Positions 3,235 to 34,301 are shown, counted from the stretch's first letter. The stretch: DNA of 64,000 bases from Escherichia coli (GCF_003019035.1 NZ_CP027447.1), one strand, 5' to 3'. Translations and numbers: made by a program. Notes: generated by a model from the sequence alone, not told the origin.

Positions 3235-3758
3235 TGTTTTTTAAAACGTCAAATCCCGCAGCACTGCTGGCGTGGGACCAGTTTATGGCGGACTGTCTGA
3301 AACTACGCGAAGAAGCCCGCCATCTTGATAAGGTTCTGGGTTGTGGTTGCCGGTCAGTATTCAGCACAGGTATTGGTGGGCGTTATTTTCATGGTGTGAA
3401 CTTTCCGGGGAATGAGCGCCCTTTCTCGCGGGAGCTGTGGACCGTACAACGGCCCGCATCAGGTAACAGTTGCAGGCCTAGAACTTCGCGGATACCTGTT
3501 CATCTCAGGGAGCAGGCAAAAGAGCTGGCGAAAATATGGCAGGAGAATATTCCGGTCACTTATGCCCGCACAGATGCTCTTTTACCCGCACTGGGACTGG
3601 ATTTCAGCGCAACAATATTCGGGCCGCTCCGGTGGTTCCGTGTTGGTGATGTGATTTACGTCATGACGGGGATGACACCCGCACAGGGCTGCATGACGGA
3701 AATCCTGTCCGATGAATTCATGAAGGCAAAGATTGCGTTAAAGGGGGCCGCTAAATGA
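3234..3758 (+). CDS. Hypothetical early protein
   Basis: ATG at 3234 overlaps the upstream stop (GTGATG); the six-frame ORF at 3195 is rejected as an upstream extension. Confidence 0.5.
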   Translation: MFFKTSNPAALLAWDQFMADCLKLREEARHLDKVLGCGCRSVFSTGIGGRYFHGVNFPGNERPFSRELWTVQRPASGNSCRPRTSRIPVHLREQAKELAKIWQENIPVTYARTDALLPALGLDFSATIFGPLRWFRVGDVIYVMTGMTPAQGCMTEILSDEFMKAKIALKGAAK

Positions 3759-4423
3759 AAGAACGTGGCGTTGCTTTTAATGACGATATGGTCAGGGCAA
3801 TTCTCGAAGGAAGAAAGACGCAAACACGCCGCCCGGTAAAAAATGTCGGACACGATAACTGTCTGGTTATCCATCGTAACGGTGTTTATACCCACGTTAT
3901 GGATGCACCTGAGCATGGTTTATGCCCGTTCGGTAACGTTGGTGATCGCATCTGGGTCCGTGAAGCGTGGGCAATATTAGGCAATGAGGATGGTTGCAGT
4001 GTGGACTGGAACGGCAACCTTTGTCATGGCGATGAGAAGAAGGCAGCAAGGATTTATCGGGCAAGTTGTGAACAAAAGCCTGGTGATTACGGTCTGTGGT
4101 CAATACCTGATGATGCTGACTGGAAACCTCGCACTGTGAATGAAAAGTTTGATGGCAGGTGGTGCCCATCTATCCACATGCCGCGCTGGGCGTCGCGCAT
4201 TCTGTTGGGAATAACCGACGTGCGTGTGGAACGGCTGCATGATATTAGCGAGGCAGATGCGAAAGCGGAAGGCGCATTTCCGGCGACGTACAAAATTACG
4301 CCACCGGAAGCTGTTTATCGCGTTGGTTTTGGTGATATCTGGCGCGGTATTTATGGGCAAGATAACTGGCTGTCTAATCCGTGGGTATGGGTAATTGAGT
4401 TTAAGCGTATTCAGGAAGCATAA
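3755..4423 (+). CDS. Early protein with N-terminal ASCH-like (PUA-fold) motif
   Basis: 222 aa; N-terminal motif MVRAILEGRKTQTRRP resembles the ASCH GxKTxTxR signature (compare E. coli YqfB); start overlaps upstream stop. Confidence 0.55.
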   Translation: MKERGVAFNDDMVRAILEGRKTQTRRPVKNVGHDNCLVIHRNGVYTHVMDAPEHGLCPFGNVGDRIWVREAWAILGNEDGCSVDWNGNLCHGDEKKAARIYRASCEQKPGDYGLWSIPDDADWKPRTVNEKFDGRWCPSIHMPRWASRILLGITDVRVERLHDISEADAKAEGAFPATYKITPPEAVYRVGFGDIWRGIYGQDNWLSNPWVWVIEFKRIQEA

Positions 4424-4425
4424 CT

Positions 4426-4767
4426 ATGAGCAAATCACTTAATGCACGTTGTATTCGCCGTTGGGAAGTCAGATTTAAGCCTGTTTGTGATTCAAAAGTT
4501 AGCCCTCACATGCGTAAAAGCTTTTTGCGTGGGGTGCGTGAATTAGGGCTTATTACGGCTGAAAACATGGTTGAAAGCATGGCTGAGAAAAACGCCAGGT
4601 TTGATTACGACGGCAAGGACACAGGCTGGTCACCGGAGTTTTCTAACTGGTATGCAACATGCCGAGAAAAGTATTGTAAAGAGGCCCGCGACTATCTGGA
4701 TGAAGAAGTCACAAACGATGAGATCGATGAAGAAATCAGAACTGAGCTAGAGTATTGGAATGACTAA
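4426..4767 (+). CDS. Hypothetical early protein with acidic C-terminus
   Basis: 113-aa ORF, coupled to neighbours. Confidence 0.5.
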   Translation: MSKSLNARCIRRWEVRFKPVCDSKVSPHMRKSFLRGVRELGLITAENMVESMAEKNARFDYDGKDTGWSPEFSNWYATCREKYCKEARDYLDEEVTNDEIDEEIRTELEYWND

Positions 4768-5392
4768 TCTGGCCGATATGACCGGAAAGTGTTTCAGCGA
4801 TACAAGCGGTGTGGTAGCACCGCTTTTTAAAGGTATGATCATGAGTCGCACATCCCTGATTAAATTAATCCATGTCGCCCGTCGTGATCTACAACTCGAC
4901 GACGATACTTACCGCGCTTTTCTGATGCAGAAAACGGGCAAAATCAGTTGCCGCGAGCTGACGGTAACGCAACTGGAACAGGTGCTCGATGCCATGAAAG
5001 AACGCGGCTTTAAGAAGCTGAATAAACATCCACGTCGCCGCTTTAAGGGGCATGTCACGCCCCGCGAGAAGGTATACAAAGTCTGGCAGCAGATGGCAGA
5101 AGACGGTTTTATTACCGATGGCGGTGATGTGGCGCTGGATAAATATGTTCAGCGCCTGACGGCGAAACGTAATGGCGGACAGGGTGTTTCCACGCTGGCG
5201 TGGTGTCATGGCGACACCCTGTTGATTGTTCTCGAAACTCTCAAGCAGTGGCATATCCGCTGTATTCGTGAAGCCTTTTCCCGTCACGGGCTTCCGTTGC
5301 CGGTCAGTCCGTCCGGGCGTGAACTGCGCGGCTATGATGCCATGACGGCGGCTTATGCCCATGCCAGAAAGACACGGAGGATGGCACAATGA
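4760..5392 (+). CDS. gemA: GemA-like early protein
   Basis: Position immediately upstream of mor as in Mu; true start may be the internal ATG at 4841 (MSRTSLIKL...). Confidence 0.65.
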   Translation: MTNLADMTGKCFSDTSGVVAPLFKGMIMSRTSLIKLIHVARRDLQLDDDTYRAFLMQKTGKISCRELTVTQLEQVLDAMKERGFKKLNKHPRRRFKGHVTPREKVYKVWQQMAEDGFITDGGDVALDKYVQRLTAKRNGGQGVSTLAWCHGDTLLIVLETLKQWHIRCIREAFSRHGLPLPVSPSGRELRGYDAMTAAYAHARKTRRMAQ

Positions 5393-5778
5393 CGGAAGAT
5401 TTATTTGGTGATTTGCAGGATGACACCATCCTGGCACATCTTGACAATCCCGCAGAGGATACGTCACGCTTTCCGGCACTGCTGGCGGAGCTGAACGATT
5501 TACTGCGCGGGGAATTGTCCCGGCTGGGTGTTGATCCTGCCCATTCACTGGAGATTGTAGTGGCTATCTGTAAGCATCTGGGCGGCGGTCAGGTCTACAT
5601 TCCACGCGGTCAGGTTCTGGACTCGCTGATTCGGGATTTGCGTATCTGGAATGATTTTAACGGTCGCAACGTCAGCGAACTGACCACCCGTTATGGTGTC
5701 ACTTTCAATACGGTTTACAAGGCCATTCGCCGGATGCGACGGCTGAAATACCGCCAGTACCAGCCCTCACTTCTGTAA
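5389..5778 (+). CDS. mor: Mor, middle operon transcriptional activator
   Basis: 129 aa; paralogous to the downstream C protein (shared C-terminal helix-turn-helix region); position matches Mu. Confidence 0.85.
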   Translation: MTEDLFGDLQDDTILAHLDNPAEDTSRFPALLAELNDLLRGELSRLGVDPAHSLEIVVAICKHLGGGQVYIPRGQVLDSLIRDLRIWNDFNGRNVSELTTRYGVTFNTVYKAIRRMRRLKYRQYQPSLL

Positions 5779-5783
5779 ACAGT

Positions 5784-5808
5784 AAAGCCGGTTAATCCGG
5801 CTTTTTTT
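5784..5808 (+). terminator. Rho-independent terminator after mor (end of early transcript)
   Basis: AAAGCCGG-TTAAT-CCGGC hairpin followed by TTTTTTT. Confidence 0.7.
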
Positions 5809-6099
5809 ACGTCCTCAATATCCTGTGATGAATAACCGTACCGGGGGAAATCATCATGGGTAAAGGCTGGAATGCATCCTTTCATCTTGGCAGACGTGAG
5901 CGGCTGCGTCAGGAGGTTTTGCACCGTGTCGCCGGTGGGCCTCGGCCTTCGCCCCGCGACTATACCGGTCATGATGGCACCCACGGCAGTTATTACATGA
6001 AAGGCTGGCAGTCAGTTGATATGCCGGAAATTCTTCACCACTGTCAACGTTATAAGGAAAAATATTGTGTACAGAAAATTCAGTGATGAATGTTTCGGG

Positions 6100-6197
6100 C
6101 CGTCCACGCTGATTAGTGCGATAAAAGTGATTGCCCTTGTGGTTCTGATAACCATCAGTGCCGTGGTGTATCTTTCTGTCTGTTAACCGGGGGAAAT
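6100..6197 (+). promoter_or_regulatory. Probable Mor-dependent middle promoter region upstream of C
   Basis: Intergenic position between the mor terminator and C; no motif verified. Confidence 0.3.
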
Positions 6198-6620
6198 ATG
6201 CAGCATGATTTATTTGAACACGATCCGGCAATTCGCCAGTTAATCGGACATATTGATAACATCCCGGCCCCGGAACTGGAATCACGCTGGCCCCGTTCGG
6301 TGGTTGATCTGATTGATGTTCTGGAAAACGAACTGAAACGCCAGAACGTCAGCAATCCCCGTGAACTTGCCCGTAAACAGGCCGTTGCCCTGTCCTGTTT
6401 TCTGGGGGGGCGGCAGTTTTACATCCCCTGCGGCGATACTATCCTGACCGCGTTACGCGACGATTTGCTTTACTGCCAGTTCAATGGTCGTAACATGGAA
6501 GAACTGCGTCGCCAGTACCGCCTGTCCCAGCCGCAGATCTACCAGATTATTGCCCGCCAGAGAAAGCTGCATACACGACGTCATCAGCCTGATCTGTTCT
6601 CACCTGAAAGCCAGAAATAA
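6198..6620 (+). CDS. C: C, late gene transcriptional activator
   Basis: 140 aa, Mor/C family; position matches Mu. Confidence 0.85.
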   Translation: MQHDLFEHDPAIRQLIGHIDNIPAPELESRWPRSVVDLIDVLENELKRQNVSNPRELARKQAVALSCFLGGRQFYIPCGDTILTALRDDLLYCQFNGRNMEELRRQYRLSQPQIYQIIARQRKLHTRRHQPDLFSPESQK

Positions 6621-6640
6621 CCGGCATCCTGCCGGTTATT
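6616..6640 (+). terminator. Hairpin overlapping the C stop codon, possible terminator
   Basis: ATAACCGGC-ATCCT-GCCGGTTAT inverted repeat; weak T tract. Confidence 0.4.
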
Positions 6641-6644
6641 TCCT

Positions 6645-6711
6645 GTCACCATAATCCCGCACCTGCCATCTGATTTTTTAGACTGCCATCAGAGCATTTT
6701 TTCAGGGAAGC
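6645..6711 (+). promoter_or_regulatory. Late promoter P-lys with candidate C-binding motif
   Basis: CCATAATCCCGCACCT (6649-6664) shares CATAA(C/T)CCC...CCCGCACCT with the region upstream of gene I. Confidence 0.5.
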
Positions 6712-7230
6712 ATGATGGCGGGGATACCAAAAAAACTGAAAGCCGCACTGCTGGCGGTAACGATTGCCGGTGGCGGTGTGGGTGGTTATCAGGAAATGAC
6801 CCGTCAGTCTCTGATCCACCTGGAAAATATCGCTTATCTGCCTTACCGCGATATTGCCGGTGTGCTTACGGTCTGTGTGGGACATACCGGGCCGGATATC
6901 GAAATGCGCCGTTACAGCCATGCGGAGTGTATGGCTCTCCTCGACAGTGATTTAAAACCGGTTTATGCGGCAATCGATCGTCTTGTCAGGGTGCCGCTGA
7001 CGCCATATCAGAAAACGGCGCTGGCAACGTTTATTTTCAACACCGGTGTTACCGCATTCAGTAAAACAACGTTGCTGAAAAAACTCAATGCCGGTGATTA
7101 CGCCGGAGCGCGTGACCAGATGGCCCGCTGGGTGTTTGCCGCAGGCCATAAATGGAAAGGACTGATGAACCGTCGCGAAGTGGAAATGGCAATCTGGAAT
7201 ATCAGGGGGGCGGATGACCTTCGCCAGTAA
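6712..7230 (+). CDS. lys: Endolysin (lysozyme-like, with N-terminal signal-anchor-release type hydrophobic segment)
   Basis: 172 aa; hydrophobic N-terminus LKAALLAVTIAGGGVGG followed by a lysozyme-like domain. Confidence 0.85.
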   Translation: MMAGIPKKLKAALLAVTIAGGGVGGYQEMTRQSLIHLENIAYLPYRDIAGVLTVCVGHTGPDIEMRRYSHAECMALLDSDLKPVYAAIDRLVRVPLTPYQKTALATFIFNTGVTAFSKTTLLKKLNAGDYAGARDQMARWVFAAGHKWKGLMNRREVEMAIWNIRGADDLRQ

Positions 7231-7600
7231 AAGTTTACTGCTGGCAGCCGTGTTTGCCGCCGTTCTGTCTGGGGTGTTGTGGCACAGGCTGGACAGCACC
7301 CGCCACGATAACCAGACGCTGCGCCGTGAATTACAGACGGAGCAACAGGCCCGCAACACGGCTGAATGGTTGTTACACAGTCAGGAACAGACGATGCAGG
7401 TATTTTCCGCTATCCGTGCCGCAAATCGTGCCGCGCGGCTGGCAGATGAGACAGAACATCATGATGCAAAACAAAAAATTACAACCGCCATTACCGGTGA
7501 CAATTGCAGCACTCGTCCTGTGCCTGCCGTTGCTGCTGACAGGTTGCGGGAACTCGAAAAACGCACCCGTGCCATCGGTGGTGATCCTGCCCGAAACTGA
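7214..7600 (+). CDS. Inner-membrane spanin subunit (Rz-like)
   Basis: 128 aa; N-terminal transmembrane helix then charged coiled-coil region; directly after lys. Confidence 0.6.
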   Translation: MTFASKSLLLAAVFAAVLSGVLWHRLDSTRHDNQTLRRELQTEQQARNTAEWLLHSQEQTMQVFSAIRAANRAARLADETEHHDAKQKITTAITGDNCSTRPVPAVAADRLRELEKRTRAIGGDPARN

Positions 7601-7802
7601 TGCAGAACTGACGGAAGCAACGCCCGTTCCGCCCATGCCACAGCCCCTGACGTGGGGAGCATCCCTTCTCTGGAATGCTGACCTGCTGATGGCGCTCGGG
7701 CAGTGCAACCGCGACAAGGCATCAGTCCGGGAACAGGAGACCCGGAGGAAAGAAATTTATGAACGAAGACCAGAACCGGGCGGTGGCGCTGCTGCTCGCT
7801 GA
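7461..7802 (+). CDS. Outer-membrane spanin lipoprotein (Rz1-like), overlapping the inner spanin in another frame
   Basis: Lipoprotein signal with lipobox LLLTGC; proline-rich mature part; ATGATG start at 7461. Confidence 0.5.
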   Translation: MMQNKKLQPPLPVTIAALVLCLPLLLTGCGNSKNAPVPSVVILPETDAELTEATPVPPMPQPLTWGASLLWNADLLMALGQCNRDKASVREQETRRKEIYERRPEPGGGAAAR

Positions 7803-7953
7803 ACTCTGGCAGGGGAATACCCGTGATATTCCCCGTCCGGCGGCGTATGACCCGCCTGTATTGTGTGCCGGTTGCGGTCGTGAGCTGCGGCCTGATGTGC
7901 TGAGACAGCAGCCAATGGCGAACTACTGCCACTGGTGCCGTGGAGCAGAATAA
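7759..7953 (+). CDS. Small zinc-finger protein (CxxC...CxxC)
   Basis: 64-aa ORF with CAGCG and CHWC motifs. Confidence 0.4.
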   Translation: MNEDQNRAVALLLAELWQGNTRDIPRPAAYDPPVLCAGCGRELRPDVLRQQPMANYCHWCRGAE

Positions 7954-8252
7954 TGGATTTGATTTCAGTTTTAGCGTTATGGCCTTACCTGTTGCCTGTT
8001 GTGGCCGGTGGGGCCGTCTGGGCGATGCGTCGTAGTTTTGCCAGCACCGAGCGTGTGGAGCGTCTTGAAAACCGGATGACCGAAATGGAAACCCGCTACG
8101 CCAGCATCCCTGGCACAGAAGATGTACACGAAATGCGCCTGCGTATTGCAGAGCTGTCCGGCGATATCCGGGTGCTGTCCCAGCGGGTGCAGTCATTTTC
8201 CCATCAACTGGAGCTGCTGCTTGAAAACGCAGTAAACCGGAGTAATTCATGA
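7953..8252 (+). CDS. Small membrane protein, possible lysis accessory protein
   Basis: ATG at 7953 overlaps the upstream stop (TAATG); N-terminal transmembrane segment then coiled coil. Confidence 0.5.
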   Translation: MDLISVLALWPYLLPVVAGGAVWAMRRSFASTERVERLENRMTEMETRYASIPGTEDVHEMRLRIAELSGDIRVLSQRVQSFSHQLELLLENAVNRSNS

Positions 8253-8539
8253 TTAACGATATTCTGACCGAAGACCGTCGTCTGGTCATCCTGCGTTCCC
8301 TGATGGACTGCAATAACGAAGCCAACGAATCCATCCTTCAGGACTGTCTGGATGCATACGGACACAACGTTTCCCGCGATGTGGTTCGCGGCCAGATTGA
8401 CTGGCTGGCAGAGCAGCAACTGGTCACCGTGGAAAACCTGCGCGGCTTTTATGTCGTAACGCTGACCTCCCGAGGTCAGGATGTGGCGGAAGGCCGCGCC
8501 CGCGTTGCCGGTGTCAAGCGTCCGCGTCCCCGTGCATGA
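8249..8539 (+). CDS. Hypothetical protein upstream of terminase (Mu gp26 position)
   Basis: 96-aa ORF, coupled to neighbours. Confidence 0.55.
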   Translation: MINDILTEDRRLVILRSLMDCNNEANESILQDCLDAYGHNVSRDVVRGQIDWLAEQQLVTVENLRGFYVVTLTSRGQDVAEGRARVAGVKRPRPRA

Positions 8540-9126
8540 CAGGAGGCGTGATGGACAGGAAAACACGGGGCCGGGCTTCAAAAGTGGATTTACTGCCGGA
8601 AAACGTACGTAAAACGCTGCATGAAATGCTGCGTGATAAGGCGATCCCACAGGCCCGCATTCTGGAAGAAATTAACGCACTGATTGAAGACGCTGGCCTG
8701 CCGGATGAGATGAAACTCTCCCGTTCCGGTCTGAACCGTTACGCGACGAACGTCGAGCAGGTAGGCCATAACCTGCGACAGATGCGTGAAATGACGTCAG
8801 CACTGACCGCAGAACTTGGCGACAAGCCAATGGGAGAAACCACAAAGCTGATTCTGGAAATGGCCCGCAGCCAGCTTTTTAAGGCCATGATGCGGCAAAT
8901 CGAAAACCCGGAATCTGACGTGGATATTGACCTGCTGAAAAATGCCATGCTGGCGGCACAGCGTCTGGAATCCACGGCAATGTCCAGCCACCGGCGCGAG
9001 AAAGAAATCCGCCAGGCATTCGCAGAAGAAGCGGCAAACGCCGTCAGTGAAGAACTGCGCGGGCAGGATGGCATCAGCGAAGAGCTGGAGCAGCGTATCC
9101 GTGATGTGCTGCTGGGTAAGGCATGA
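8536..9126 (+). CDS. Putative terminase small subunit (Mu D / gp27 position)
   Basis: 196 aa; immediately upstream of the large terminase. Confidence 0.6.
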   Translation: MTGGVMDRKTRGRASKVDLLPENVRKTLHEMLRDKAIPQARILEEINALIEDAGLPDEMKLSRSGLNRYATNVEQVGHNLRQMREMTSALTAELGDKPMGETTKLILEMARSQLFKAMMRQIENPESDVDIDLLKNAMLAAQRLESTAMSSHRREKEIRQAFAEEAANAVSEELRGQDGISEELEQRIRDVLLGKA

Positions 9127-9133
9127 GAGGGTT

Positions 9134-10789
9134 ATGAACACCAGAGAAAACAACCTTAAAGCCCTTCATGCCCCCCGAAAAATCAACCTGCGTGAGGAAG
9201 CCGAACTGCTCGGCGTGAATATCGTGACCGATATCGGGGAAGCACAGCCCCGCAATGAACCGGTTTTTCTGGGCTATCAGCGCCGCTGGTTTGAGGATGA
9301 AAGCCAGATTTGCATCGCTGAAAAATCCCGTCGTACCGGTCTGACATGGGCCGAAGCGGGCCGCAATGTCATGACGGCAGCAAAGCCGCGCCGCCGTGGC
9401 GGTCGCAACGTCTTTTATGTGGGTTCCCGTCAGGAAATGGCGCTGGAATATATCGCCGCCTGTGCCCTGTTTGCCCGCGCCTTTAACCAGCTGGCAAAGG
9501 CTGATGTCTGGGAGCAGACCTTCTGGGACAGCGACAAAAAAGAAGAAATCCTCACTTATATGATCCGTTTCCCTAACAGCGGATTTAAGGTGCAGGCGCT
9601 GTCAAGCCGTCCGTCTAACCTGCGTGGTTTGCAGGGGGACGTGGTGATTGATGAGGCGGCATTTCATGAAGCCCTGGACGAACTCCTGAAAGCGGCCTTT
9701 GCTCTCACCATGTGGGGTGCCCGCGTGCGGATCATATCGACACATAACGGCGTCGATAACCTGTTTAACCAGTACATTCAGGATGCGCGCGAGGGGCGCA
9801 AGGATTACAGCGTTCACCGCATCACGCTGGATGATGCCATCGCTGACGGGTTGTACCGACGTATCTGTTACGTCACGAATCAGCCGTGGTCGCCGGAAGC
9901 GGAAAAAGCCTGGCGTGATGGCCTGTACCGGAATGCGCCGAATAAAGAGAGTGCCGACGAGGAATACGGCTGCATTCCTAAAAAATCCGGGGGCGCTTAT
10001 CTGTCACGCGTGCTGATTGAAGCCGCCATGACGCCAGCGCGGGATATCCCGATTCTGCGTTTTGAAGCCCCGGACGATTTTGAATCGCTGACACCACAAA
10101 TGCGCCACGGCATCGTTCAGGACTGGTGTGAACAGGAGCTGCTCCCGTTGCTCGATGCGCTGTCGCCGCTCAATAAACACGTACTGGGCGAAGACTTTGC
10201 ACGCCGTGGCGACCTGACGGTGTTTGTTCCGCTTGCCATCACTCCTGACTTACGCAAACGCGAATGTTTCCGCGTGGAGCTGCGTAATGTGACCTATGAC
10301 CAGCAGCGACAAATCCTTTTATTCATTCTGTCCCGTTTGCCCCGTTTTACCGGCGCTGCATTTGATGCCACCGGTAACGGCGGTTATCTGGCAGAAGCCA
10401 CCCGTCTGATTTATGGCCCGGAGATGATCGACTGTGTGAATCTGACCGCATCCTGGTATCAGGAGTGGATGCCAAAACTGAAAGGCGAGTTTGAAGCGCA
10501 GAACATCACGATTGCCCGGCACCAGACCACTCTTGATGACCTGCTCCACATCAAGGTGGACAAAGGTATTCCGCAGATTGATAAGGGGCGCACAAAAGAT
10601 GAAGGTGGTAAAGGCCGACGACATGGCGACTTTGCCGTGGCGCTCTGTATGGCTGTCAGAGCGTCTTATATGAATGGTTTTGTTATCGACGAGGACAGCA
10701 TACAGGCGCTGCCACCACGCCACCGTGGTGATGATGTTGATAACGATGATTTTGATGATTATCACCAGTTTGAACGAGGGGGCTGGTAA
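9134..10789 (+). CDS. E: Terminase large subunit
   Basis: ATG at 9134 (MNTRENNLKAL...), 551 aa; the six-frame ORF start at 8942 is an in-frame upstream extension overlapping the previous gene. Confidence 0.85.
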   Translation: MNTRENNLKALHAPRKINLREEAELLGVNIVTDIGEAQPRNEPVFLGYQRRWFEDESQICIAEKSRRTGLTWAEAGRNVMTAAKPRRRGGRNVFYVGSRQEMALEYIAACALFARAFNQLAKADVWEQTFWDSDKKEEILTYMIRFPNSGFKVQALSSRPSNLRGLQGDVVIDEAAFHEALDELLKAAFALTMWGARVRIISTHNGVDNLFNQYIQDAREGRKDYSVHRITLDDAIADGLYRRICYVTNQPWSPEAEKAWRDGLYRNAPNKESADEEYGCIPKKSGGAYLSRVLIEAAMTPARDIPILRFEAPDDFESLTPQMRHGIVQDWCEQELLPLLDALSPLNKHVLGEDFARRGDLTVFVPLAITPDLRKRECFRVELRNVTYDQQRQILLFILSRLPRFTGAAFDATGNGGYLAEATRLIYGPEMIDCVNLTASWYQEWMPKLKGEFEAQNITIARHQTTLDDLLHIKVDKGIPQIDKGRTKDEGGKGRRHGDFAVALCMAVRASYMNGFVIDEDSIQALPPRHRGDDVDNDDFDDYHQFERGGW

Positions 10790-27693: not shown

Positions 27694-29048
27694 TGTTTTA
27701 TATTGATAACGACAGCGGCGTAACCGTCATGCCGCCCGTATCCGCCCAGCGTAGTGCTATCGTTCGCTGGTTTTCAGAAGGTGACGGGAATAATGTTATC
27801 ACATGGCCCGGCATGGACTGGTTTAATATTGTTCAGGCGGAGTTATTAAACACGCTGGAAGAAGCTGGTATTCAACCGGATAAAACAAAATTAAACCAGC
27901 TTGCACTGTCCATTAAAGCCATTATGAGCAATAACGCGCTGCTGATAAAAAATAACCTCAGCGAAATTAAAACTGCCGGGGCATCAGCACAGCGTACAGC
28001 ACGTGAAAATCTGGATATCTATGATGCCAGCCTGAACAAAAAAGGACTCGTTCAGCTAACCAGTGCCACTGACAGCCCCAGTGAAACGCTGGCAGCCACC
28101 GCAAAAGCGGTGAAAATTGCGATGGATAATGCCAATGCCCGTCTGGCAAAAGACCGGAACGGAGCAGATATTCCCAATAAGCCGCTGTTTATCCAAAACC
28201 TCGGTTTACAGGAAACGGTAAACAAGGCTGGTAACGCTGTTCAGCGTTCTGGCGATACAATGACCGGAAAACTGAATCTACCACAGACATCTGCATTCGG
28301 CGTTAATACCGATAATGCACTGGGTGGTAATTCCATTACTCTCGGAGATAACGACACCGGTATTAAACAGGGCGGCGATGGTGTCCTTTTATTCTATTTA
28401 AATGGACAACTGATATTTGGGCTTCAACCCACATCCGCTGATTTTTATAAGCGAGTTGCCTACATTCATCAGGGAGTAGCTCCAGATGGGAGTGGCGCAT
28501 TTGCAGACCAGTTAAATAATGCCACCGCGCCTTTTGTTCAGACGCAGTTTGCCTGGAATCCCACTCCTGGCGGTCATTACGTACCGATAGCTAAGGGCTT
28601 GTCCATTCGCAATGGACAGGGGTATCCAGGTGCGGTCAGCTTTGGTTATTTACTAACTGAACAAATGGGATTTCCCATACCATGCATTCATATGCGTGGA
28701 GATTACGGAGCTGATGCTTTGTGGCAGTTTAACCCGAACGATAAATCTTTTATTTCACCGGGGGCTCTTGTTGCGGGTGGCATCCGTTATAACACCGATG
28801 GAAATATATTTGGCGGGTGTTGGGGTTCAAATTTAGCTGATTATCTCAATAGCACATATGTAAGAGACATTCGACTTGGTAGCGCAGAATCAATATCAGC
28901 ATGGCGAGGCCCTGGTTACTGGGATACTTCTGGATATGTTCTGACCGCAGCCGGAAACAGCAACACCGATGAATTTATTGATACATTAACCAGAAGGCCT
29001 ATTCAGAAGTTGATTGGTGGGACATATTATAACGTTGTGAGTATTTGA
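27693..29048 (+). CDS. S: Tail fibre protein S: constant part outside the G segment, variable part inside
   Basis: 451 aa; gix site at 28188-28215 lies within the gene; C-terminus YYNVVSI parallels the S' C-terminus WYNVASV. Confidence 0.8.
28188..28215 (+). repeat. gix recombination site (left) for Gin invertase
   Basis: TTATCCAAAACCTCGGTTTACAGGAAAC; inverted copy at 31023-31048 with one mismatch in the 26 aligned bases. Confidence 0.85.
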
Positions 29049-29049
29049 C

Positions 29050-29577
29050 ATGATGCATTTAAAAAACATTAAAGCAGGGAACCCAAAAACACCTGAACAA
29101 TACCAGTTAACCAAAAAAGCTGGAGTGGTCTGGCTTTATACTGAAGATGGTAAAAACTGGTACGAAGAACAAAAAAACTTTCAACCAGATACTATAAAAA
29201 TTGCATACGATAAAAATAATGTGATTGTTACCGTAAGCAAAGATGTTTCAACGATTAACCCGGAAGGTTTAAGTGTTGTTGAAGTATCCGATATTACGGC
29301 AAATCGTCGCGCAGACAATAACGGAAACTGGATGTTTCTGGATGGTAAAGTAGTAAAGCGGGAATATACAAAACAGGAGCTGCAACAGCAGGCAGAGTTA
29401 CAAAAATCCGCTTTGCTTTCCGAAGCGGAGTCTGTGATTCAACCGCTGGAACGTGCTGTCAGGCTGAATATGGCAACTAATGAGGAACGCGCACGACTGG
29501 AGTCATGGGAACGCTACAGTGTTCTGGTCAGCCGTGTGGATACGGCAAATCCTGAATGGCCACAAAAGCCTGAATAA
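29050..29577 (+). CDS. U: Tail fibre assembly protein U
   Basis: 175 aa; paralogous to the U' ORF on the opposite strand. Confidence 0.8.
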
Positions 29578-29582
29578 AAATT

Positions 29583-29602
29583 AAGGCCCGATAGCGGGCC
29601 TT
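29583..29602. terminator. Hairpin between convergent U and U', possible bidirectional terminator
   Basis: AAGGCCCG-ATAG-CGGGCCTT; A/T-rich flank on the U' side. Confidence 0.5.
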
Positions 29603-29605
29603 GTC

Positions 29606-30139
29606 TCATTCTGGTTGTTCCGGGAATGTTACAGGAAGAACAGAGGTATCTGTGGCATCAACCTGCTGCATGTATAACATCCAGTTAATGAGTCTTTGCC
29701 TGTCTGAATCGCTGATAATTCCCAGCGCAAGCTGTGTTTGCCAGCACTGCGTTTCCTCTCTGGCCTGTCGCAGCAAAATCTGTTTCTGAATTTCAGCCAG
29801 TTGACGTAGTTCTTCATCAGTCCGGGGGCGTTTCATGACCTTGCCATCCTGAAACACCCAGTCACCGAGAATATCGGCCCGGCGATTCGCTGTCGTGTCG
29901 GGTAATTCGACAACGCTCATTCCTTCCGGGTTAATAGACGACACATCTTTTTCAATATAGCGAATGATACCTCTGTCATCGTAAGCGATTTTTAGTGTGT
30001 CTGCCTGAAAGGCTTTTTGTGCCTCATACCAGTTCTGACCATCTTCAGCGTAAAGCCAGATAACACCATGTCTCTTTGTTAACTCATACTGTTCCAGTGT
30101 TTTAGCATTACCCGCTTTTATGTTCTTTAAGTGCATCAT
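29606..30139 (-). CDS. Tail fibre assembly protein U' (silent in this orientation)
   Basis: 177 aa, same N-terminus as U ([11 protein letters not shown]...). Confidence 0.8.
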   Translation of the reverse strand: MMHLKNIKAGNAKTLEQYELTKRHGVIWLYAEDGQNWYEAQKAFQADTLKIAYDDRGIIRYIEKDVSSINPEGMSVVELPDTTANRRADILGDWVFQDGKVMKRPRTDEELRQLAEIQKQILLRQAREETQCWQTQLALGIISDSDRQRLINWMLYMQQVDATDTSVLPVTFPEQPE

Positions 30140-30140
30140 A

Positions 30141-30998
30141 TTAAACGCTCGCTACATTATACCAGGTGCCATTTATATACTTTTGAACGGGTCTGTAATA
30201 AACGCCCGCTATATTATCGGCAGAGTTGGACCCTGTATCCTGAACATTAATACCAGACAATACATGACCTGACGGGCACTTGAAATTCCATGTTTGCCAG
30301 TTGTTCACACCATGATATTGCTGTGAACCAAGACGAACATCTTTTACGTATCGGGAATCAAAGTTACTCCAGTTACTTGGTTGTATGTGACCGTTTACAG
30401 CAAATATCACCGAATTATCTGTATTTCGCTGACTATAGAAATGCCAGCCTGAATCATCACCAAGCTCTGCAACAGTTGGTCTTGATGAAGTGCCCCATAA
30501 ATTAAAACCTACGTTTTTCGTGGAGTTGTTGGAGCTGGATAGCGTGAATTTTTTACCATCCCCGGCCTGAACGTTTTTAAAAGCAATAGCAACTCCATTC
30601 TGAAAGCGGAATACTCGCTGACTATTAGCGTAAACATCCAGAATACCGTCTCCATTCTGTTTAAATCCGGTATCATTATCACCAAGAACAATAGAGCTAC
30701 CACCTAACGCATTCGTCGTACCAACTCCAAGGCTGCCATTAATGACGGCATTAACAAGAATATTTAGTGCATCCCATTTCAGCGTCATCAGGTCTTTTGT
30801 TGTGGTGCTTTGTTTGCTTCTCCATTTGAAATATTCATTGCCGTTGTCGCCTGTTTCAAACCACATGTATGAATCAGTGTCACCATCGGCATCATTTTTA
30901 AATCCAATCTTCGCCCAGTCAGTATTTCGAATCCAGGCAAGGATTGAGTCATTTTCAAAAGTAAGCCCACCGGACAAAGTATCGCCATTTTTTTGCAC
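30141..30998 (-). CDS. Alternative tail fibre variable part S' (promoterless, silent in this orientation)
   Basis: 285-aa ORF from first ATG; real reading frame should run from the gix site. Confidence 0.75.
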   Translation of the reverse strand: MQKNGDTLSGGLTFENDSILAWIRNTDWAKIGFKNDADGDTDSYMWFETGDNGNEYFKWRSKQSTTTKDLMTLKWDALNILVNAVINGSLGVGTTNALGGSSIVLGDNDTGFKQNGDGILDVYANSQRVFRFQNGVAIAFKNVQAGDGKKFTLSSSNNSTKNVGFNLWGTSSRPTVAELGDDSGWHFYSQRNTDNSVIFAVNGHIQPSNWSNFDSRYVKDVRLGSQQYHGVNNWQTWNFKCPSGHVLSGINVQDTGSNSADNIAGVYYRPVQKYINGTWYNVASV

Positions 30999-31022
30999 GG
31001 CATTACCAGCCCTGTTTACCGT

Positions 31023-31778: not shown

Positions 31779-31967
31779 ATGAAATCAATTCGCTGTAAAA
31801 ACTGCAACAAACTGTTATTTAAGGCGGATTCCTTTGATCACATTGAAATCAGGTGTCCGCGTTGCAAACGTCACATCATAATGCTGAATGCCTGCGAGCA
31901 TCCCACGGAGAAACATTGTGGGAAAAGAGAAAAAATCACGCATTCTGACGAAACCGTGCGTTATTGA
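31779..31967 (+). CDS. com: Com, zinc-finger translational activator of mom
   Basis: 62 aa with CxxC...CxxC; overlaps the mom reading frame. Confidence 0.85.
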
Positions 31968-32634
31968 GTATGAAGGCCAGATTGTTGGCTATGGTTCAAA
32001 GGAGCTGCGCGTTGAAACCATATCCTGCTGGCTGGCCCGCACAATTATTCAGACAAAGCACTATTCCCGCCGTTTTGTGAATAACTCTTACCTCCACCTG
32101 GGAGTGTTCAGCGGACGCGATCTGGTTGGCGTTCTCCAGTGGGGATATGCCCTTAACCCCAACTCAGGTCGTCGTGTCGTGCTTGAAACGGATAACCGGG
32201 GCTATATGGAGTTGAATCGCATGTGGCTACACGACGACATGCCCCGCAACTCTGAATCACGGGCCATCAGCTACGCGCTGAAAGTTATCAGATTACTGTA
32301 TCCGTCAGTGGAGTGGGTTCAGTCCTTTGCTGACGAACGCTGCGGACGCGCAGGCGTTGTGTATCAGGCGTCGAATTTTGATTTTATTGGCAGCCATGAA
32401 AGCACGTTCTACGAGCTGGATGGTGAGTGGTATCACGAGATAACGATGAACGCAATTAAGCGCGGTGGACAACGAGGCGTGTATTTACGGGCTAATAAAG
32501 AGCGTGCCGTGGTGCACAAATTTAATCAGTATCGCTACATCAGGTTCCTGAACAAGCGAGCAAGGAAGCGACTAAATACTAATCTATTCAGGATCCAACC
32601 ATATCCAAAATCAACTCTGACTAGTATCAAATAA
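31888..32634 (+). CDS. mom: Mom DNA modification protein (anti-restriction adenine modification)
   Basis: 248-aa ORF from first in-frame ATG, overlapping com; real start uncertain. Confidence 0.8.
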
Positions 32635-32769
32635 CTTATTTATTCCTGCTGAAAAGCAGCTCCTCATGGCATAAAATTGTTCACGTGAGTTTAAAATGAC
32701 CAAATGGCAGTACAGTATTTGGTCATTTTATGGGGTGAATTTTAAAGTCAAAACGATGGTAAGGTGCAT

Positions 32770-33105
32770 ATGAAAAAAATACTCATAGCAGTACTACTTT
32801 GCTTTGGTGTTCTTTCTGCTAATCAGGCAATAGCGGCTGTTACCTTAAGCGGTAAGTATCCTGCATGCATATCTGCTAATGAATTCGAGCGATTAAGCTC
32901 AATTTTGCAACACGAAGATCAAGAGGCGTTTGAAGAGATCTTTAAGACATCATGCTTTATGCCTAAAAAGGGGGTTAAAGTTGATAAAGTTGTTTCTATG
33001 GGGTGGACCAGTGGAGTTGCGCATGTCAAAGTTTATGTAAAAGGCAATCTTTACGATCTTTGGACTAACACCGAAAATCTTCAGTCCGAGAAGGCTGGTA
33101 AATAA
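32770..33105 (+). CDS. Small secreted protein of unknown function between mom and the Mu right end
   Basis: ATG at 32770 preceded by AAGGTG; signal peptide MKKILIAVLLCFGVLSANQAIA; mature part ~90 aa with two Cys; AT-rich. Confidence 0.55.
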   Translation: MKKILIAVLLCFGVLSANQAIAAVTLSGKYPACISANEFERLSSILQHEDQEAFEEIFKTSCFMPKKGVKVDKVVSMGWTSGVAHVKVYVKGNLYDLWTNTENLQSEKAGK

Positions 33106-33330
33106 CGCTGTAATCAACGTGTAATCACATCTCCTACCAGCTATCGCCTGATAAAGTTAGGTGATAGCTATTTCAATACTCTCTAGTTTCACTGAAAGCA
33201 CGAAACTTAATACCTCCATTCCAGATTGCTTAATAATCGAGCATTTTTATCTTGAATGTTTTTGCGCGCTTTATCAGCCATACCCTAAGTGATCCCCATG
33301 TAATGAATAAAAAGCAGTAATTAATACTGC

Positions 33331-33407
33331 TGTTTCATTTGAAGCGCGAAAGCTAAAGTTTTCGCATTTATCGTGAAACGCTTTCGCGTTTTTCGTGCGC
33401 CGCTTCA
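33331..33407 (+). repeat. Mu right-end terminal sequence with MuA transposase binding sites (attR)
   Basis: TGTTTCATTTGAAGCGCGAAAG and TTTTCGCATTTATCGTGAAACG repeats; terminus ...CGTGCGCCGCTTCA. Confidence 0.85.
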
Positions 33408-33412
33408 TTCAG
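33408..33412. repeat. Candidate 5-bp target-site duplication copy (TTCAG)
   Basis: First five host bases after the Mu end; the matching copy would flank the off-window left end. Confidence 0.4.
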
Positions 33413-33706
33413 GGTGAACGTCCACTCTTTTTGATCGTCAGACGCTTTCCAGCTACTTGCCAGATCGCCTTCAACGTCGGTTGAGCCTTTATCACCGTCC
33501 GTTTTGTACTGAACCAGTCGCTGATAAGACGGGTAGGTCACTGTCCAGTCGTTATTATCAATTGTCACCGCTGGGTCGAGGGTTTGTGGGTCGGCAGCTT
33601 TACCGATCACCAGCATATCTTTCGGTACGGCGGCGTGCGCAACCGGCATTGTTGTGGCAAGGACGATCGCGAGCAATGTAGGACGAAACAAAATCGATCT
33701 CTTCAT
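33408..33706 (-). pseudogene. ddpA: ddpA 5' fragment (D-Ala-D-Ala dipeptide-binding protein), truncated by the prophage
   Basis: Signal peptide and N-terminal ~99 codons (MKRSILFRPTLLAIV...DQKEWTFTL) run straight into the Mu terminus. Confidence 0.8.
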
Positions 33707-33719
33707 GACAGTTTCCTGA

Positions 33720-34301
33720 TTAACTGGCGTGCTGTGTGCCAGGGGATATAAAACAGGTGAATTGATCAGCGAGTAGTGGGTAACTCGCTGCCTGGGGTAA
33801 TTCGAAGTGCCACCATTCGCTCGGGATACCGACAAAGCCACCGCCAGTCATAATCGCATTCAGCAACAGCCGATTGCGCTGAGCGGCTGGCGGGACGGAA
33901 GGGTGATAAGCATGGGAACGTTCGTGCATTTCATCGAACTCTGCACCCATATCCAGTATGTTCCCGTGCTCATCACGAAGCGTCAGGTCGATCGCTGTGC
34001 CACGGCTGTGATTAGAACCGACCGCCACATCAACAACATATTGCGGGTCTGGGCAGGCTTGCCACAACATCGCCTGTGCTTGTTGTGGGCGATACGCATC
34101 GTAAATCACCAGTTGTAAGCCTGACAGCTGGGCGATACTGATACTTTTCGCCAGCGCAGTAATCGCATCCTTGTGTAACAGACAACGCGCTTGCTGATAA
34201 ATAGCTTTGCCTGTGATGTTATCAGCACAGGCGTATTTCAATTCGATCTCCAGATCAGGGAAGATCACGGCTAAATCAACCAGTTCGGTGGTATCCGACA
34301 T
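33720..34301 (-). CDS. ddpX: D-Ala-D-Ala dipeptidase
   Basis: 193 aa, VanX-like. Confidence 0.9.
   Translation of the reverse strand: MSDTTELVDLAVIFPDLEIELKYACADNITGKAIYQQARCLLHKDAITALAKSISIAQLSGLQLVIYDAYRPQQAQAMLWQACPDPQYVVDVAVGSNHSRGTAIDLTLRDEHGNILDMGAEFDEMHERSHAYHPSVPPAAQRNRLLLNAIMTGGGFVGIPSEWWHFELPQAASYPLLADQFTCFISPGTQHAS

Follow-up and report, generated by a model that had tools for sequence, protein, structure and literature searches.

Background

The closest described counterpart of the locus analysed here is the lysis system of bacteriophage Mu, for which Chamblee et al. (2022, mBio 13:e00813-22, PMC9239132) coined the term "releasin" to designate gp25. In that work, Mu gp22 was characterised as a SAR (signal-anchor-release) endolysin that the phage 21 pinholin S21-68 is able to release. 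A Mu 25::cam lysogen does not lyse in a timely manner and continues to grow to about 3 h, and chloroform still frees active gp22 from it. Production of gp22 and gp25 alone, from plasmids, is enough for lysis. Substitution K6A or K7A in gp22 removes the requirement for gp25, whereas K9A or K-to-R changes do not. Moreover, gp25 promotes the release of three unrelated SAR endolysins. The products gp23 and gp23.1 act as spanins, with amber mutants yielding spherical cells and being complemented by lambda Rz/Rz1 (PMC9239132). Chamblee et al. left three models for the action of gp25: the endolysin N-terminus may be cleaved by proteolysis, its charge may be neutralised non-covalently or an unknown partner be involved, or a channel may form transiently. 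Our literature search found no later mechanistic study of the releasin.

A Mu-type lysis cassette in an Escherichia coli prophage

The sequence analysed here, referred to as the window, is a stretch of 64,000 nucleotides from Escherichia coli (GCF_003019035.1, NZ_CP027447.1), with positions counted from its first letter. We read positions 6715-8252 as the late lysis operon carried by a transposable prophage of Mu type; the operon would be holin-less and composed of a SAR endolysin, a releasin and spanins, and we assign this reading a probability of about 0.95. Function is carried over from Mu through sequence identity, the DNA of this lysogen being the sole material. The interval holds five overlapping genes on the + strand, which correspond to Mu 22, 23, 23.1, 24 and 25 at approximately 98.4% DNA identity, and the Mu record AF083977.1 labels these products as SAR endolysin, i-spanin, o-spanin, hypothetical protein and releasin (gp25). 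The cassette is thus already known, as a near-identical copy of the Mu type example dissected in 2022. The features of the locus are as follows.

6067-6186, + strand: gp20-like middle gene, 39 aa, single transmembrane domain (TMD), GTG start (PHROG 19823, E 8e-30)
6198-6620, + strand: gene C, Mor-family late transcription activator (Pfam Mor, E 9.3e-34; so annotated in Mu)
6638-6704, + strand: putative Plys, C-activated late promoter (homology to Mu 10403-10469)
6715-7230, + strand: gp22, SAR endolysin, T4-lysozyme-type muramidase (PF00959 Phage_lysozyme, E 1.3e-36)
7214-7600, + strand: gp23, i-spanin (inner-membrane subunit), 128 aa (PHROG 214, Rz-like spanin, E 1.5e-34)
7461-7802, + strand: gp23.1, o-spanin (outer-membrane lipoprotein subunit), 113 aa (Pfam LysC PF23793, E 4.6e-13)
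7759-7953, + strand: gp24, 64-aa Cys4 protein (63 of 64 aa identical to Mu gp24; D20N)
7953-8252, + strand: gp25, releasin (DUF2730), 99 aa (Pfam PF10805, E 2.5e-13; 99 of 99 aa identical to Mu gp25)
8249-8539, + strand: 96-aa ORF after the gp25 gene

A megablast search with positions 6100-8600 returned 15 matching phage records at 98.3-99.0% identity, 14 of which cover at least 80% of the query, and all 15 belong to the Mu group (Mu, D108, SfMu, PhiR68_1 and the Yersinia vB_YpM phages). With an identity of 98.4-99.0% to the genomes of 14 Mu-group phages, the cassette does not represent a chance pattern. At an identity of at least 98%, it is present in 40 of 5,426 complete E. coli genomes.

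The control region upstream of the cassette is similarly conserved. The C protein is identical to Mu C at 138 of 140 residues, with two substitutions, and of the 94 nt that separate C from gene 22, where a late promoter is annotated in Mu, 92 match Mu. A promoter scan found no sigma-70 consensus site upstream of the endolysin gene, and Plys was therefore placed by homology to Mu. The missing sigma-70 consensus fits an activator-dependent promoter. By homology to Mu, C would activate Plys and thereby produce a single transcript of the tightly overlapping genes.

Endolysin and spanins

A previous reading of the DNA, made from the sequence alone (hereafter the sequence-only reading), had described an endolysin with a hydrophobic N-terminus, and such a gene is present at 6712/6715-7230, with the adjustment that the Mu start lies at 6715. 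Adjacent ATG codons occur at 6712 and 6715, and the second, which agrees with the Mu numbering, gives a protein of 171 aa. Residues 8-26 of gp22, LKAALLAVTIAGGGVGGYQ, are weakly hydrophobic (mean Kyte-Doolittle value 1.06) and include 4 Ala, 5 Gly and 1 Thr. Residues K6, K7 and K9, which precede or flank this domain, are kept, as is the E37/D46/T52 triad (E-x8-D-x5-T). A PHROG search assigns the protein to the endolysin family. Both sequence hallmarks of a SAR endolysin were thus found, namely a muramidase domain with the triad and a Gly/Ala-rich N-terminus with basic residues.

The protein is identical to Mu gp22 at 169 of 171 residues (differences M42L and S118T), and because neither difference falls at K6, K7, K9 or the triad, the SAR and lock behaviour described in Mu may be transferred to it. 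By analogy with Mu, gp22 would reach the inner membrane through Sec export by the host and remain anchored there by its SAR domain while the muramidase domain sits in the periplasm, and Lys6 and Lys7 at the cytoplasmic side would lock it in the membrane.

The overlapping inner/outer spanin pair with the lipobox LLLTGC is likewise present as previously described. The gp23 protein carries a single N-terminal TMD at residues 7-23 (hydropathy) and differs from its Mu counterpart by five substitutions (123 of 128 aa identical). The gp23.1 gene begins inside the gp23 gene in another frame, 140 nt before the gp23 stop, and extends past its end. In gp23.1, the lipid-modified cysteine of the lipobox would be Cys29, the mature part of 84 aa contains 10 Pro, and five substitutions again separate the protein from Mu (108 of 113 aa identical). 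Together, gp23 and gp23.1 have the makeup of a two-component spanin of overlapped architecture. In the last steps of lysis, again by analogy with Mu, released gp22 would refold and degrade peptidoglycan, whereupon the gp23/gp23.1 complex would disrupt the outer membrane.

The releasin gp25

The single-pass membrane protein of about 99 aa noted from the sequence was recovered at 7953-8252, with one TMD. Its PF10805 score is 50.4 bits against a cut-off of 24.9, with the best stretch at residues 30-100 of a 105-aa form; this form, which starts at a GTG at 7935, is an upstream extension of the 99-aa gp25 gene. The TMD lies near residues 3-25 (hydropathy) and is followed by R26 and R27, a pair that is invariant in 15 homologues. 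The predicted topology is N-out/C-in, with approximately four periplasmic residues and a cytoplasmic domain of 73 aa that is predicted to be helical and contains 12 acidic and 10 basic residues. Moreover, gp25 is encoded by the fourth gene after the endolysin, and hence within five genes downstream, in a Mu-like phage. By these features of sequence and position, gp25 would be a Mu-type releasin (DUF2730, type I of Chamblee et al.).

The sequence-only reading had proposed that this membrane protein controls endolysin release, a view that holds insofar as the identical Mu gp25 is required, while its holin-like aspect does not: gp25 sets no holin-like timing and instead permits the release of K6/K7-locked gp22. 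It had also proposed deleting 7953-8252 and assaying lysis timing. As the protein encoded in the window is identical to Mu gp25 at 99 of 99 residues, this deletion has in effect already been done in Mu, where the equivalent 25::cam blocks timely lysis and where a canonical holin was not found (PMC9239132). By analogy with the identical Mu protein, gp25 here would be needed for gp22 to exit the bilayer on schedule. The raw-sequence inference of holin-less release therefore matched the Mu experiments.

As to how gp25 acts, we tentatively favour a non-covalent role at the cytoplasmic face, in which the protein may shield or neutralise the charges of K6 and K7 or chaperone the charged N-terminus across the bilayer. 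Proteolysis is ranked below this possibility, as a weak preference, because gp25 works on SAR domains that share no sequence (PMC9239132) and because its model is a helix-break-helix with no globular fold. The AlphaFold2 model, built from a 15-sequence alignment, consists of a pair of long helices briefly interrupted at residues 50-54 and is of low confidence (pLDDT 62.5, pTM 0.24). In the same alignment, S31, D57 and H84 are invariant, so that a catalytic role for gp25 is possible from the sequence; given these residues and the weak model, the non-covalent preference is tentative. A profile search of PDB sequences with gp25 returned nothing below E 0.09. For the field, the question is how a charge-locked signal-anchor is freed by a cytoplasmic protein that is membrane-tethered and non-lethal, and in this respect the present locus is no more tractable than Mu. 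Taken alone, the locus matters little, as it is a near-exact copy of the Mu system of 2022, whose parts the GenBank annotation of Mu already names.

The 64-aa protein gp24

The previously noted 64-aa ORF was confirmed at 7759-7953, with four cysteines in two CxxC pairs. The motif is CxxC-x17-CHxC (C36-x2-C39 and C57-x2-C60), and the protein has no hydrophobic segment. It belongs to PHROG 3260, a family of unknown function; in Pfam and NCBIfam it gave just sub-threshold CxxC matches (NinF, BsaP and ECs_2282), and no relative was found among PDB sequences. A word-indexed homologue search recovered three proteins, and an exhaustive search of 1.84 billion representatives yielded three genuine 50%-identity clusters in addition to repeat-protein noise. 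Residues C36, C39, C57, H58 and C60 are invariant across the three homologue clusters.

At all loci examined, namely the present one, Mu, SfMu and the diverged relatives L004 and L005, the gp24 gene immediately precedes the DUF2730 gene, with an overlap between the two; here, the gp24 stop codon and the gp25 start codon share one base. Given this conserved adjacency, it is conceivable, though improbable, that the zinc-ribbon-like gp24 specifically serves the releasin, as its partner or modulator, and might, for instance, tune when gp25 becomes active. If so, Mu would possess a two-part timing device replacing holin/antiholin logic. The sequence-only reading had included 7759-7953 among the segments to be deleted in lysis-timing assays; in Mu, the two-plasmid reconstitution achieves lysis with no need for gp24 (PMC9239132).

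The surrounding prophage

In a local blastn comparison of the window with the full Mu genome, collinearity begins at Mu position 3733, which lies in gene B, and extends to the Mu right end, found at window position 33407, such that the prophage spans 1-33407 of the window. The first approximately 3.7 kb at the left end, comprising c, ner, A and the beginning of B, falls outside the window, and in Mu this region encodes no membrane proteins (PMC9239132). GemA, Mor, C, gp27, Mom and Gin were all found. In the 22-kb block that runs from gene 20 up to the G segment, the sole gap relative to Mu is 1 nt and intergenic. The collinear block ends in the constant 5' part of the tail-fibre gene S, and no frameshifting indels were found in it.

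The Mu right end (33274-33407) adjoins a broken host ddpA. Beyond the prophage end, ddpX (D-Ala-D-Ala dipeptidase, Pfam Peptidase_M15) lies at 33720-34301 on the - strand. The interrupted ddpA and the ddpX gene beyond 33407 identify the host as E. coli and the element as a Mu-like prophage that has transposed into ddpA, thereby breaking up the ddp operon (right end 33407; region 33368-34301).

Several segments of the prophage depart from Mu. At 3721-4800, the Mu gp13, gp14 and Mu_54 segment is swapped for unrelated DNA, which holds an ORF of 222 aa (3755-4423; PHROG 874, unknown function) and an ORF of 113 aa with an acidic tail (4426-4767), both with no Pfam match. The G-segment/tail-fibre region (28267-31011) shows either approximately 70-73% identity to Mu or no match, while the flanking gin, com and mom are approximately 97% identical, and this divergence points to a host-range module other than that of Mu. 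An insert of approximately 665 bp (32610-33273) separates mom (31888-32634) from the Mu right-end sequence; its ORF at 32764-33105 codes for a protein of 113 aa whose N-terminus, MKKILIAVLLCFGVLSANQAIA, resembles a signal peptide. The ORF has no Pfam or PHROG match, and the insert gave no megablast match in the phage collection or complete E. coli genomes. The insert and its ORF are possibly a moron.

The question of a holin

ORFs of at least 30 aa across 1-33500 were scanned for hydrophobic segments with home-made Kyte-Doolittle scans (a 19-aa window at 1.6 and a 17-aa window at 1.2), as distinct from TMHMM. No real ORF with at least two hydrophobic segments was found in 5700-8600 or among the Mu-homologous prophage genes in the window, in agreement with the earlier statement that no multi-TMD holin ORF lies adjacent to the cassette. 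As candidates for a hidden holin, the ORFs with at least two well-separated hydrophobic segments were all antisense to a known gene, and the other multi-segment calls were overlapping windows over one stretch, in spurious or out-of-frame ORFs. Searches of Pfam and PHROG gave no holin family match. Every membrane protein of the cassette carries one TMD, with one strong hydrophobic segment each in gp23, gp23.1 and gp25, and no sequence of a canonical holin of class I, II or III or of a pinholin was recognised in the late lysis cassette.

Upstream of the cassette, Mu gene 19, which encodes four TMDs, is missing from the prophage: Mu 9463-9831 is absent from the corresponding window region, 5778-6198. 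This region contains a gp18-like ORF of 76 aa (5856-6086) with an altered C-terminus that overlaps the gp20-like ORF. Direct inspection of SfMu showed that the gene-19-less layout and the GTG start of gp20 are shared with the window, and contiguous matches to the gene 18-20 region (5780-6200) occur in PhiR68_1 and vB_YpM_3/23/Tongde.

Alternative readings

Two alternatives would restore a holin to the system. Since gp25 is the sole membrane protein of the late cassette besides the endolysin and spanins, and is small and late-transcribed as holins are, it could be regarded as a holin or pinholin of an unusual, single-TMD type, depolarising the membrane and thereby freeing the SAR endolysin in the manner of phage 21 S68. 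We consider this very improbable, as the identical Mu gp25 causes no growth defect and none of the dinitrophenol-triggered lethality seen with lambda S105 and 21 S68; Mu lysis is delayed by dinitrophenol and not advanced (PMC9239132); and gp25 has one TMD and just approximately four periplasmic residues. A holin might otherwise be sought in the middle operon, where gp19 (four TMDs) and gp20 (one TMD) are membrane proteins near the lysis genes and were proposed as a holin/antiholin pair by Samanta et al., as that proposal is cited in PMC9239132. The TMD-bearing proteins of Mu are indeed only gp19, gp20, gp23 and gp25, but inactivation of genes 19 and 20 has little effect on lysis and reveals no holin behaviour, gp19, gp20 and gp25 confer no dinitrophenol-triggered lethality singly or jointly, and gene 20 is not a lysis gene in Mu (PMC9239132). 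Moreover, gene 19 is absent here and from SfMu, PhiR68_1 and vB_YpM_3/23/Tongde, and counterparts of genes 18-20 are missing between GemA and C in the more distant relative L005. This natural absence of gene 19, both here and in several Mu-group records deposited as phage genomes, lends comparative support to the view that gp19 is not a hidden holin, and a gp19/gp20 pair is in our estimation the most improbable reading of all.

It is also improbable, if slightly less so than either holin proposal, that the cassette is the now inactive relic of a defective prophage. Parts of the early region and the G segment do differ from Mu, and with the left end outside the window the integrity of the element can be judged only in part. 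Against this stand the collinearity with Mu, free of frameshifting indels, from gene 20 to the constant part of S, the intact lysis ORFs with their conserved start contexts, and the presence of the Mu right end abutting the disrupted ddpA. The evidence as a whole is most consistent with a holin-less lysis operon of Mu type, in which a SAR endolysin is released with the aid of gp25.

Comparison with known systems

The Mu cassette 22-23-23.1-24-25 has the same genes, order and overlaps as the cassette in the window, and Mu gp26 (96 of 96 aa) and gp27 (191 of 191 aa) are also identical to proteins encoded here. The differences from Mu are the substitutions in gp22 (M42L and S118T), gp23 and gp23.1 (five each) and gp24 (D20N), as well as the missing 4-TMD gene 19. 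SfMu resembles the window in having a 76-aa gp18-like ORF and a GTG-start gp20, followed by C, the endolysin, the spanin, gp24 and the DUF2730 gene, but its gp25 differs in being 100 aa long with a slightly different N-terminal TMD. SfMu and the Yersinia phages vB_YpM_3/23/Tongde (Muvirus) differ from the window in the early region and in the tail fibres.

At a greater distance, L005, with approximately 64% gp25 identity, encodes a P-K-K SAR endolysin, both spanins, a gp24 homologue, a DUF2730 gene and gp26/gp27 with the order kept. Between GemA and its C-like activator, L005 carries a gene for a 124-aa protein with a signal peptide (967-1341), and no Mor gene or gene 18-20 equivalents were called in that interval.

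Phage 21 S68/R21 and P1 Lyz share with the window a Sec-exported, membrane-tethered muramidase that becomes active once out of the bilayer. In contrast to such pinholin/SAR-endolysin systems, the window encodes no pinholin and, by analogy with Mu, would achieve release through a non-lethal, non-depolarising, tethered cytoplasmic protein acting together with a K6/K7 lock on the endolysin.
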